From IMG/VR virus record IMGVR_UViG_2880366365_000011: a stretch of DNA of 64,000 bases, one strand, 5' to 3'. The position numbers are program-made. The stretch comes from a virus. Taxonomy: Duplodnaviria; Heunggongvirae; Uroviricota; Caudoviricetes. How positions within the stretch are numbered: position 1 is the first letter of the stretch; each line of letters starts with the position of its first letter. Positions 39,001 to 45,000 of the stretch are shown piece by piece.

Positions 39001-42000
39001 CTGTACACGGGAGAAATTCGATGTCGATTAAACATTATGATGTTGTCAGGGCGGCGTCGCCGTCAGACCTTGCGGAAAAGCTGACACACAAACTGAAAGA
39101 GGGCTGGCAGCCGTTTGGTAGTCCGGTGGCCATAACCCCTTATACCCTGATGCAGGCGATTACAGCAGAAGGTGATGTGGTGGTCAGTGGTGCAACTGAG
39201 CCGGATTGGTACTACGTCATCGTACTGGCCGGGCAGTCCAATGCCATGGCTTACGGTGAAGGGCTTCCGCTGCCGGATTCATACGATGCTCCGGATCCGC
39301 GCATTAAACAGCTGGCGCGCCGCAGTACAGTGACGCCGGGTGGGGCTGCCTGCAGATATAACGATATTATTCCGGCCGACCACTGCCTGCATGATGTGCA
39401 GGATATGAGTACGCTGAATCATCCGAAGGCAGACCTGAGCAAAGGGCAGTACGGCTGTGTCGGCCAGGGGTTACATATTGCCAAAAAACTGCTCCCGTAT
39501 ATCCCGAATAACGCGGGGATCCTGCTGGTACCATGCTGTCGTGGTGGTTCGGCATTTACCCAGGGCGCGGAGGGGATATTCAGCGAGTCCACGGGGGCCA
39601 GCCAGGATTCGGCGCGCTGGGGTGTGGGTAAACCGTTATATCAGGACCTGATTGCGCGCACCAAAGCTGCATTACAGAAGAACCCGAAAAATGTGTTGCT
39701 GGCGGTGTGCTGGATGCAGGGAGAGTTTGACATGAGCGCCGCCACCCACGCACAGCAACCTGCGCTGTTTACAGCCATGCTGACACAGTTTCGTGCTGAC
39801 CTCTCCGTGTTTAACGCGCAGTGCCATGGTGGCAGTGCTGCAGATGTGCCGTGGATTTGTGGTGACACGACGTATTACTGGAAAAATACATACGCTACCC
39901 AGTACGACACCGTGTACGGCGGGTATAAAAACAGGGAGAGTGAGGGCGTTTATTTTGTGCCCTTCATGACAGACGGTAACGGCGTCAATACCGCCACTAA
40001 CGCGCCGGCAGAAGATCCGGATATTCCGGCATCAGGATATTACGGTGCGGCATCGAGAACGAATGGAAACCAGGTATCATCAAACCGCCCGACACATTTC
40101 AGTTCATGGGCGCGCAGGAGCATTATTCCGGATCGTCTGGCAACCGCTATTCTGAACGCAGCCGGGCGCACCTCAGCCTTCATCAGTGGTAAGGCACCGG
40201 AAATCAAACCCTCGCCCGGCGGCAACACGCCATCGGGTCCGTCTGCAGATACGTCCGTTCGCACAATCTCCCTGCTGCCGGCAGCCGGAGAGGCTGCTGC
40301 GCAGGGCTGGAGCATTAAGGATGGCGGAATTCAGTTGTCAGATGGTGTATTTAAGATCACCAGGCAGAGCAATAAAACCTGGTCCCTGACGCATCCGGTG
40401 GATGACGCAATTACCCTGCTGACACAGGGCGGCAGACTGACCTGTAAGTTCCGCCTGTCAGGCGCACTGACCAACAATCAGTTCGGGCTGGGGATTTATC
40501 TGTATACGGACGCTCCCGTTCCTGATGGTGTGGCGATGACGGGTACCGGTAATCCGTTCCTGATGTCGTACTTCACTCAGACCACTGACGGCAGAGTGAA
40601 TCTGATGCATCACAGGAAAGCCGGAAACACGAAGCTGGGGGAGTTCGGCGATTACGGTAACGACTGGCAGACGCTGGAGCTGGTGTTCACCGCCGGCAGT
40701 GCCACGGTTACTCCGAAACTGAATGGAGTGGCTGGCCCGGCATTCCAGGTTATAAAAGACAGTCTGACACTGGGACTGAATGCGCTGACGCTGACGGATG
40801 TTACAAAAAATGCAGCGTATGGCGTTGAGATAGAAAGTCTGATGCTGGAGATAAATGCACCGGCAGCATAATAAAAAAAGCCAGCGACTGACCTGAAAAA
40901 GAAGACGCTGGCTAAAAGGCCTTATATGTTTGTAGAGACTTATTTTTCACAGACAGCAATGATGCCTGTCAATATATTATCAATATGCGGATTGTTTCAG
41001 TTACAGATGCTTTATTAAGGAAAAAAACAGCCAGCACTGACTTTCGGTGGAGAGGTGCTGGCTCAAAAGGATAGATGTACTTCACATGTTGCTTCTATAT
41101 GGCAGTACATTTTCTGACAGACAGTGACGGATGTTGTCAAGATATTGTGTCATTTATAACCTGAATCGGGGGAGGCCGGAATGTTATCTGGCATTTTTAG
41201 CAGAGCCTGAATGCCATAATCACGGCTCCCGGCGTTGGCCGTCAGTGGGTGACACTGGCGGCTTTTTTGTTTTCCTTTACTTTCATTTTCTGTCGGCGGT
41301 GACGGAGACATACATCAGATGGAAAAAATCACAACGGGTGTGTCATACACCACGTCAGCGGTGGGGACGGGATACTGGTTACTGCAGCTGCTGGACAAAG
41401 TCTCTCCGTCCCAGTGGGTGGCGATAGGCGTGCTGGGGAGTCTGCTGTTTGGGCTGCTGACATATCTGACGAACCTGTATTTCAAGATTAAAGAAGACCG
41501 GCGTAAGGCGGCGCGGGGAGAGTAAAGTGATGAAGAAAAAATACGAACTGGTTGTTAAAGGGATAAATAATTACCCGGATAAGATTACTGTTACTGTGGC
41601 ACTGGAAATTGGTGGGTATCCGTCACTGTTGTTGCCAGATGTGGCGATTAGTCTTGACCGTACTGAAGGTGCCACGCTGGAGTTTTACGAAGCTGAGGCG
41701 AAAAAGCAGGCGAAGCAGTTTTTCATGGATGTTGCTGCCGGGTTATGTGAAGGGGATGGTCCGTTACCGGAAAAGCGTCCCGTAATTTTAGAGGCGCAGG
41801 ATGTGTTGATAACCTACAGAGGAAAACTACCGGGAATATGCGCTGGCGGAAGCGGTGGTGGCGCGTCTGGATACAGACTTTGTGGACCCGAAAAAAGCGG
41901 CGGTGGCAGATGTCTCCCCTGCGTCCATCACCCATGATGTGAAGGGCACGGCGTCAAGCGGTAATCCGGATGCGGATGCCGAGGCCGCGTTTGGCCAGTT

Positions 42001-45000
42001 TGTGACGGCAAATCTGCAGCCCACCGGTGCGGTCTGGCTGATGTCCAGCACGAATGCCCTGGCGCTGTCCATGCGTAAAAATGCGCTGGGGCAGAAGGAA
42101 TATCCGGACATGACCCTGCTGGGCGGGACCTTCCAGGGGCTGCCGGTGATTGTCTCCCAGTATGTGGGTGACCAGCTGGTACTGGTGAATGCGCCGGATA
42201 TTTATCTGGCGGATGACGGTGGTGTGGCGGTGGATATGTCCCGTGAAGCGTCACTGGAGATGCAGTCTGAACCGACCAGCGACAGCAGCACACCGTCACC
42301 GGTGGAGCTGGTCTCCATGTTCCAGACCGGCAGCGTGGCCATCCGTGCGGAGCGCTGGATCAACTGGCGTCGTCGCCGTACCGCGGCGGTGGCTGTGATC
42401 ACCGGTGTGAACTACGGAACTGCGTCCGGCGGCTGAGTCTGATGAGGAGGGCGGGAGGCGCTAGCTTCCCGCAGTAACTGATGGCAAAAATCCAGTATCT
42501 GCAGGGCACGCATGATGCCCGGGCCGGGGATATCCGTGATGTGGCACAGCCGTGTGCGGAGGTGCTGGTTCGCCTGGGGAAGGCGGAGTACATCACAGCG
42601 CGACGTCCGGCAGGTCAGAAAAAGAAACGTGATGCGGAGCATGGCGAATGTGGAACCTTTTGCGGCGACCCCGAAAAAACCAGAAATCAGGACGTGATGT
42701 AAAAGAGGTGGGCTGGACCAGCCTGTTTCAGGCGGTGGCTGAGCCTTTTGCCGGTGCCTGGCAGCAGGGAGTGAAAGCCGATCCGGAAAGTGTCCTCTCC
42801 TTTCATGCGGTGTTTTCTTGCATTTCGCTGATATCCCAGGATATCGCCAAAATGCGGCTGCGCCTGATGCAGACCGATACACAGGGGATCCGCCGTGAAA
42901 AACGGCAGGGGGATATTGCCCGTCTCTGTCGTCGTCCCAATGCACAGCAGAATCGTATCCAGTTTTTTGAACTGTGGCTGAACGCCAAACTGCGTCACGG
43001 CAATACGGTGGTGCTGAAAATCCGTAACTCCCGTGGGCAGATCAAAGAACTGCGTATTCTGGACTGGAGCCGGGTTGAACCTCTGGTGGCGGATGACGGC
43101 GAGGTGTTCTATCGCATCACGCCGGACCGGAACTGCGGGATCACGGAGGCGGTGACGGTGCCTGCCCGGGAAGTGATCCACGACCGGTTTAACTGTTTTT
43201 TTCATCCGCTTGTGGGGCTGCCGCCGGTGTATGCTGCCGGGCTGGCTGCCACGCAGGGGTATCATATTCAGGCAAATTCAACGTCTTTTTTCAGAAATGG
43301 CGGCAGGCCGTCCGGGGTGATTGAGATCCCCGGCAGTATAACGGAAGAAAATGCGAAAAAACTGAAGAGCAACTGGGACAGCGGGTATACCGGCGAAAAT
43401 GCGGGGAAAACGGCGATTCTGAGCAACGGGGCGAAATATAACCCCACGACGTTTTCACCGGTGGATGCGCAGACGGTGGAACAACTGAAAATGACCGCTG
43501 AAATTGTCTGTTCGGTGTTCCGTGTCCCGGCCTACAAGATTGGTGTGGGACAACCTCCCTCCAGTGATAACGTGGAGGCGCTGGAGCAGCAGTATTATTC
43601 CCAGTGTCTGCAGACGCTGATTGAGTCCATTGAGCTGTTACTGGATGAGGCGCTGGAAACGGGGGAAAACGAGAGCACGGAGTTTGACGTCACCACGCTG
43701 CTGAGAATGGACAGCGAACGGCGCATGAAAACGCTGGGTGAGTCGGTGAAAAATACGCTGCTGACGCCCAATGAGGCCCGTAAACGTGAGAACCTGCCGC
43801 CCCTGGCCGGCGGTGATGCACTGTATCTTCAGCAGCAGAACTACAGTCTGGAGGCGCTGTCCCGTCGTGATGCCCGTGAGGATCCGTTCGCGTCGTCCGG
43901 GAAAACAGTCTCAGCACAACTGCCTGATGGCGCATCTGACGGTAATAAGGCAATCAGTGAAACAGAGCATGATGCGGTGAAAGCGATGTTCAGGGGGATA
44001 CTGCGAAAATGACGGAACGGGAACTGTCCATTATTCGTGCACTGGGCGAAGAATTCGCCATGGTGCTGGCGGATTTACAGCGTACATTTGAGGAGAAAAT
44101 AGCCGCGCAGGCACAAACGTTTGAAGAAAAACTGGCTTCTCAGTCTGTGGTATTACAGAAGTGCGTGACGGGTGATGATGTGCGTCCGATGCTTGAGCAG
44201 ATGGTGAAAGAGGCAGTGAGCCATATTCCTGTTCCGCGCGACGGTCGTGACTACGATCCGGATGTTCTGCAGAAGGCGGTGAATGATGCGGTGAGTGCCC
44301 TGCCGGCTCCGCAGGACGGGCGTGATGCCACGGCACTGGAAATACTCCCCGCCATTGACGATCAAAAATCCTTTCCCCGGGGCTCGTATGCCACACACCA
44401 GGGTGGACTCTGGCGGGCGTATGAAAAAACGTACGGGATGCGGGGATGGGAATGCCTGGTTGACGGGGTGGCGGATATTGACGTCAGCATGACGGGTGAA
44501 CGGTCGTTCTCTGTGGTGGTCCGGCAGAGCAGTGGCCAGCGTACGGAAAAAACATTTTCCCTGCCGGTGATGCTCTACCGTGGTGTGTTCAGAATCGGCG
44601 AAACTTACCACCCCGGCGATACGGTGACGTGGGGGGGCTCGTTGTGGCACTGCAACAGTATGACCGGTGATAAGCCCGGAGAAGCTCATTCATCAGGCTG
44701 GACTCTGGCTGCAAAACGTGGGCGGGATGCAGGAGGTGGAAAGTGACAGCATTACTGACACTGGAAGAAATCAAGGCACATCTGCGTGTTGACCATGACG
44801 CGGATGATGAGATGCTGATGGACAAGGTTCGTCAGGCTACCGCCGTGCTGCTGGCCTACATCCAGGGCAGCCGGGATAAAGTGATTAGTGAGGACGGTGA
44901 GCTGATCCCTGGTGAGGCATTAACCCGGATGAAGGGGGCTGCCACGCGACTGACCGGGATGCTGTACCGGAATCCGGATCTTGCTGAGCGGGAAGACCTC

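Follow-up and report, generated by a model that had tools for sequence, protein, structure and literature searches.

How did a prophage come to carry a holin gene that is followed almost at once by the 3' part of a capsid gene, with no endolysin, spanin or terminase gene in between? The question is raised by a stretch of 64,000 nucleotides from a virus record (IMG/VR IMGVR_UViG_2880366365_000011, Caudoviricetes; the whole stretch is called the window below), in which this prophage stands next to a tandem neighbour. A comparison with the intact orthologous prophage of Escherichia coli O157 strain 272 (NZ_CP018239.1, approximately 2,053,701-2,081,913; locus L002) indicates that the joint is almost certainly a scar, left when a single illegitimate (non-homologous) deletion took 6,992 bp out of the late region. 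The affected element is a defective lambdoid prophage of E. coli O157:H7, which is located at ydfJ and resembles Sp11 in the early and lysis regions. The features that meet at the joint are, in window coordinates (ORF, open reading frame):

41319-41525, plus strand: class II holin gene of the phage 21 S type, 68 codons, intact (Pfam PF04971, PHROG, RefSeq)
41530-41838, plus strand: ydfR', codons 1-103 of a 114-codon YdfR/DUF1327 gene, the 3' end of which is gone (Pfam, L002 alignment, RefSeq)
41838/41839, no strand: deletion junction, 6,992 bp missing relative to strain 272 (alignments, in-silico deletion)
41839-41937, plus strand: read-through tail of the chimeric ydfR' ORF, 32 codons that run through the capsid gene out of frame and end at a stop (ORF list, translation)
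41840-42436, plus strand: capsid remnant, codons 448-645 plus stop of a 645-codon fusion gene for a prohead protease (S78) and an HK97-type major capsid protein (tblastn, Pfam, RefSeq)

An alignment to an intact related prophage had been recommended by an earlier, sequence-only reading of this DNA, and when run against strain 272 it mapped one clean deletion. On the left, window positions 38900-41838 are identical to L002 4071-7009 in all 2939 of 2939 bases; on the right, window positions 41838-44800 match L002 14001-16963 with six mismatches and no gaps (99.8% identity). The junction reads ...CCGGGAAT[A]TGCGCTGG..., in which the A at 41838 can be assigned to either side, so that the microhomology amounts to a single nucleotide. 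Removal of L002 7010-14001 (6,992 bp) in silico regenerates window positions 41700-41980 exactly. The breakpoint follows from sequences compared directly, which leaves no role for chance. The earlier reading had placed a change of frame into the capsid gene near 41813; the junction with the 3' part of that gene is real, but the true breakpoint lies 25 nt away, between 41838 and 41839.

The "short ORF" that had been noticed behind the holin gene is indeed present, but it is a known gene, ydfR, in its normal position between holin and endolysin. The chimeric ORF extends from a GTG at 41527 or an ATG at 41530 to 41937, opening 5 bases past the holin gene. It matches the Pfam family DUF1327/YdfR (PF07041) at 2e-45, with 153.5 bits against a cut-off of 25, and the match covers profile positions 1-88 of 93, versus 1-92 in the intact copy. 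Positions 41530-41838 equal L002 6701-7009 at 100% identity. A full-length YdfR would have 114 codons in this allele, of which only the native codons 1-103 are left, and RefSeq labels the gene in TW14359 as "YdfR family protein, incomplete, missing C-terminus". The 32-codon out-of-frame tail (41839-41937) had no family match in Pfam or PHROG searches.

The capsid remnant has neither a start codon nor a promoter of its own. In the tblastn search of the window, capsid residues 448-645 were recovered at 100% identity over 198 residues, which agrees with the earlier estimate of a C-terminal piece of about 200 amino acids. The intact 645-residue protein (L002 12662-14599) has a Peptidase_S78 domain at residues 48-152 and a Phage_capsid domain at residues 386-635. 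The window keeps residues 448-645 only: the N-terminal prohead protease domain is absent, and the Phage_capsid (HK97-fold) domain is incomplete, the ORF at 41855-42436 matching profile positions 158-279 of 280 and the PHROG major head protein families at their C-terminal end only. The RefSeq label in TW14359 is "phage major capsid protein, incomplete, missing N-terminus". A PHROG family of 193 positions, phrog_6538, covers the capsid-remnant ORF from end to end, and two further families, phrog_2091 (183 positions) and phrog_1085 (296 positions), begin with a YdfR segment and run on into other sequence. PHROG families of this shape mean that comparable truncations or fusions are already on record from other genomes of phages or prophages.

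What has been lost can be read from the gene order in L002. There the holin gene is followed by the genes for YdfR (114 codons), lysozyme (177 codons) and a protein with a P22 antirepressor N-domain (189 codons), a 48-codon ORF and the gene for Rz (155 codons), and, after Rz, by YnfO on the opposite strand, an HNH endonuclease, terS, terL, the 645-codon capsid fusion, a 73-codon ORF and the portal gene. The lost segment comprises the 3' end of ydfR, the lysozyme gene, the P22-antirepressor-like gene, the 48-codon ORF, Rz (with Rz1), ynfO, the HNH endonuclease gene, terS, terL and codons 1-447 of the capsid gene; the domains of the lost genes include Phage_lysozyme, P22_AR_N, Rz (Phage_lysis) and Peptidase_S78 together with Phage_capsid. 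The segment starts with ATTACGG and ends with CCGTAAT, forming a terminal inverted repeat of 7 bp (L002 7010-7016 and 13996-14002).

The holin gene had been proposed at 41319-41525, and this assignment holds: the ORF is unbroken, covers the whole profile of Pfam PF04971 (phage P21 holin S) at 7e-33 and also matches PHROG holin families. It corresponds to the RefSeq entry WP_000411805.1, "class II holin family protein", and the protein has the same sequence in the intact prophage of strain 272 and in the neighbouring tandem prophage. Compared with a lysis cassette of the phage 21 type, the region has the class II P21 S holin, but the endolysin downstream of the holin is absent, as are, throughout the window, the spanin genes (Rz with embedded Rz1). 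A terminase module (terS/terL) upstream of the head genes is likewise absent from the window.

No lysozyme, Rz, terS or terL turned up when the 64-kb window was searched by tblastn with ten proteins that the deleted segment encodes wholly or in part; the only three matches were YdfR, residues 448-645 of the capsid protein and, at window positions 3-206, the last 68 residues of the capsid gene of the other prophage. Searches of both strands of 41527-42436 against Pfam, PHROGs and NCBIfam found no endolysin, spanin or terminase family, NCBIfam being uninformative in that it gave no match for any ORF of the region. An endolysin or terminase homologue in the interval 41527-41812 would have contradicted the earlier reading; across 41527-41838 the profile searches found DUF1327/YdfR only, and the other frames and the other strand were empty. 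The absence of endolysin, Rz, terminase and capsid N-terminus that had been claimed is thus borne out by tblastn and profile searches alike. The conclusion drawn from it, that the prophage cannot lyse or package on its own, also stands: endolysin, spanin, terminase, prohead protease and a usable capsid gene are all gone. A search of the rest of the genome for endolysin and terminase had also been proposed; neither is encoded in the window, but in TW14359 the neighbouring prophage has the full set.

Comparison with known prophages places the deletion in a common architecture. The prophages of strain 272 and of the window share the locus and agree in the holin protein and the 73-codon ORF, in the frameshift of the portal gene and the split of J, and in the tail genes; that of strain 272 differs by retaining the 6,992 bp. 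The lambda-like prophage Sp11 of strain Sakai (ECs_2153-ECs_2209 and beyond) has the same ydfJ site, NleG effector genes and early region, and the same order of lysis genes, namely holin (ECs_2188), ydfR-like gene (ECs_2187), endolysin (ECs_2186), antirepressor-like gene (ECs_2185) and Rz/Rz1 (ECs_2183/2184), with a DNA identity of about 96% as far as the end of Rz. A published classification lists it as unable to excise, its integrase, repressor and recombination genes being defective, and its lysis and packaging genes are kept, being scored "+" in Table 1 of the same study (PMC2669165). Beyond the lysis genes, Sp11 carries lambda-type head genes (Nu1, A, W, B, C, D, E), whereas a module of terS, terL, capsid fusion and portal of the HK97 type is found here; because the head genes differ, the prophage of the window is a mosaic relative of Sp11.

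In the Qin prophage of E. coli K-12 (essQ-ydfR-rrrQ-rzpQ/rzoQ), a class II P21-type holin gene is also followed by ydfR, but the lysozyme gene rrrQ and the spanin genes come directly after it, whereas ydfR of the window is fused out of frame to the capsid gene. A parallel loss of the endolysin beside ydfR in Qin was considered and rejected, as the MG1655 annotation has rrrQ. The tandem neighbour occupies the window from position 1 to about 19,000, the rest of it lying upstream of the window. It shares the late-gene architecture and the identical holin protein, and from holin to capsid its DNA has about 96% identity with the intact form of strain 272. Unlike the ydfJ prophage, the neighbour in TW14359 has lost none of the lysis, terminase and capsid genes, and its portal gene is unbroken, with 859 codons and a tandem repeat of 162 nt; its holin-to-capsid block is located just upstream of the start of the window.

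The joint is confined to few genomes. A stretch of 2 kb at the junction is 100% identical to genomes of E. coli O157:H7 including TW14359 and EC4115, and a 401-nt query across the junction is present whole and identical in 26 of 5,426 complete E. coli genomes, the carriers including TW14359, EC4115, SS17, SS52, TR01, JEONG-1266 and RM6067W. About 100 more genomes match only the right half of the query, at 100% and from window position 41838. The same capsid allele (at least 99% identity) is unbroken across the breakpoint in 95 records, and an intact homologue is found in 1,248 genomes. Since the long form restores two reading frames and the standard gene order, and the short form occurs in 26 genomes only, the short form is evidently, as judged from these comparisons, a derived and lineage-specific deletion. 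TW14359 and EC4115 are clade 8 strains from the 2006 spinach outbreak. No published description of this deletion was found in the literature on Sp11, TW14359 and EC4115 or in the super-shedder genome paper.

The history that these comparisons point to would begin with a late operon of the order holin, ydfR, lysozyme, antirepressor-like gene, small ORF, Rz/Rz1, ynfO (on the opposite strand), HNH, terS, terL, protease/capsid fusion, small ORF and portal. Across the one shared nucleotide, the deletion fused ydfR, after its codon 103, to the capsid gene at codon 447/448, leaving behind the intact holin gene, the chimeric ydfR' ORF with 103 native and 32 out-of-frame codons, and a promoterless and start-less capsid remnant of 198 codons. 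Cell-wall degradation (endolysin, spanin), the cutting and packaging of DNA (terS, terL) and head building (protease, capsid) would thereby have been lost, while the holin gene and the downstream tail and NleG effector genes would remain within the late transcription unit.

No evidence was counted against the deletion itself, but other origins of the joint have to be weighed. The chance that it is an assembly artefact, in which near-identical late regions of O157 prophages were collapsed or mis-joined, is next to nil. O157 genomes do contain many paralogous copies of these genes, with 9-15 matching places per genome, a setting that is prone to mis-assembly; however, 26 genomes that were finished independently, in different laboratories and on different platforms, have the same, 100% identical junction, and collapse of a repeat cannot yield this joint because the joined sequences share one nucleotide only. 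The opposite direction of change, with the short form as the ancestral one and an insertion of the 7-kb segment in strain 272 and others, has in its favour nothing specific beyond the formal symmetry of insertion and deletion. It is just as hard to credit and is in effect already refuted: the segment restores ydfR to 114 codons and the capsid gene to 645 codons including the protease domain, it gives the usual late-gene order of Sakai Sp11, K-12 Qin and the neighbouring prophage, it is without target duplications, transposase or flanking ends of a mobile element, and intact forms are far commoner.

Homologous recombination or gene conversion between paralogous prophages would be a natural source of rearrangement here, as the late region of the tandem neighbour is so similar to the intact form and as homologous exchange among O157 prophages is well documented (PMC2669165; PMC8743559). 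It is nevertheless very improbable as the cause of this deletion, for ydfR and the middle of the capsid gene are unrelated and share one nucleotide at the joint, and the sequence on either side of the joint belongs to the ydfJ prophage's own allele, from which the neighbour's differs (92-96% identity). Thus, an illegitimate deletion remains the preferred reading, although two observations weigh against its simplest version, that of random end-joining followed by neutral decay. One is the inverted repeat with which the lost segment begins and ends: a terminal inverted repeat of at least 7 bp (with a slack of +/-2 nt) was found in only 0.18% of 200,000 random position pairs from the same locus, which hints that the end-joining was not wholly random, although the observation is post hoc and no mechanism is obvious. 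The other is that the holin gene is intact and that ydfR' keeps its first 72 residues. YdfR of K-12 has itself 103 residues, of which residues 1-72 bind the catalytic half of RNase E, and RNA binding is possible (PMC13232886). Neutral decay is what we infer from the prior state of the prophage, and both the holin and ydfR' could retain function.

A rival reading is that the holin and the chimeric YdfR' would constitute a selected, working module that benefits the host, for example by holin-driven membrane depolarisation without lysis or by modulation of RNase E. The holin ORF is intact and identical to the holin of complete prophages, YdfR' with its 103 codons is as long as the K-12 protein and includes the RNase E-binding residues, and the junction persists in 26 sampled genomes. 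However, persistence is uninformative on selection because the 26 genomes, 100% identical in sequence, are all closely related, and the module would be redundant because the neighbour has an identical holin and a full ydfR. As both remnants are redundant with the neighbour's copies, a selected function for them is unlikely, and a working module would seem to have only a slim chance. Slimmer still by a shade would be the chance that either the two genes form a working module or the 7-bp inverted repeat marks a specific mechanism of deletion. In the first case, for example, expression of the holin from the late promoter in the absence of an endolysin could lead to depolarisation without lysis, and binding of RNase E by YdfR' could persist.

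The illegitimate deletion looks like neutral prophage decay without a new function, because it only adds to earlier defects of the prophage. It is ordinary decay, which poses no new biological question and is already flagged as two pseudogenes in public annotation, RefSeq marking both remnants as partial pseudogenes in TW14359. The loss of lysis and packaging that had been ascribed to the prophage is real, but it has little consequence for the cell, as the neighbour in TW14359 supplies the full set of lost genes; all lost functions are supplied by paralogous prophages in the genome, and complementation between O157 prophages has been documented (PMC2669165). The event is therefore one more step of decay in the pool of defective prophages of O157:H7, in which lysis, packaging and head functions were lost that Sp11 still encodes. 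The NleG effector cargo of the prophage is now mobile only with the help of other prophages. In addition, the junction could be used as a lineage marker for a tight group of strains that includes TW14359 and EC4115.

The assignment as a defective, Sp11-like O157 prophage is based on the ydfJ site, the lambdoid early, Q and late regions and the inactivating lesions. In TW14359 the prophage adjoins a truncated ydfJ, as in Sakai, and it carries three genes of the NleG type (DUF1076). The lesions besides the deletion comprise fragments of integrase and RecE genes, a split J gene and a frameshifted portal gene, and the prophage was already immobile before the 7-kb deletion. The earlier view that its immunity and replication regions are retained is inaccurate, as the O-like replication gene is broken by IS629 and integrase and RecE are truncated. 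The IS629/IS1203 copy (about 28259-29567) interrupts the O-like gene, which encodes a DnaT domain, at about codon 155 of 347, with a target duplication of 3-4 nt and gene flanks at 27787-28287 and 29658-30149. TW14359 does not have the insertion, and a search of the 5,426 complete E. coli genomes for its junction found no carrier, so that the window must derive from a close relative outside that collection.

The immunity region contains a Cro-like gene and an open 212-codon ORF at 26343-26981 on the minus strand, in which HTH_3 is matched at a score short of the Pfam cut-off and Peptidase_S24 is matched with a DSM motif, and of which RefSeq annotates the last 112 codons only. By its domains, this ORF looks like a complete repressor of the CI type. 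The repressor of Sakai Sp11 has been scored as defective by Asadulghani et al. (PMC2669165).

Downstream of the capsid remnant, two further features follow:

42481-42702, plus strand: 73-codon ORF, intact and conserved, in its normal place between capsid and portal genes (phrog_829 at 1e-38)
42648-44746, plus strand: portal gene, broken into two ORFs (42648-44012 and 44009-44746) by the loss of 1 nt in a G run at about 43988-43992 (Pfam, PHROG, comparison)

The product of the 73-codon ORF, WP_001063023.1, is the same protein in TW14359 and strain 272. Of the two portal ORFs, the first matches Pfam Phage_portal at 1e-80 and the second PHROG portal families. The G run reads GGGGG here versus GGGGGG (about 1760-1766) in the intact 859-codon gene of the other prophage (window 421-3000). 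The frameshift is older than the 7-kb deletion, because strain 272 has the same lesion. The split gene may not be fully dead, since the first ORF contains a complete Phage_portal domain and the second starts at an overlapping ATGA. A 162-nt unit is present in one copy in the split portal gene versus a tandem array of 3.3 copies (2008-2540) in that of the other prophage. Genes for head-tail connector and head closure are located further downstream of the portal gene.

The host-specificity gene J consists of two overlapping ORFs, 53460-55241 and 55238-57751, which RefSeq annotates as two abutting partial pseudogenes. Past about 55184 the sequence turns about 99.3% identical to Sakai Sp11, which suggests a recombinant joint. 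Between the tandem prophages, an ISEc8 element of the IS66 family is inserted in a transposase gene of the IS256 family (19687-21760), beside the truncated integrase gene at 22230-22781.

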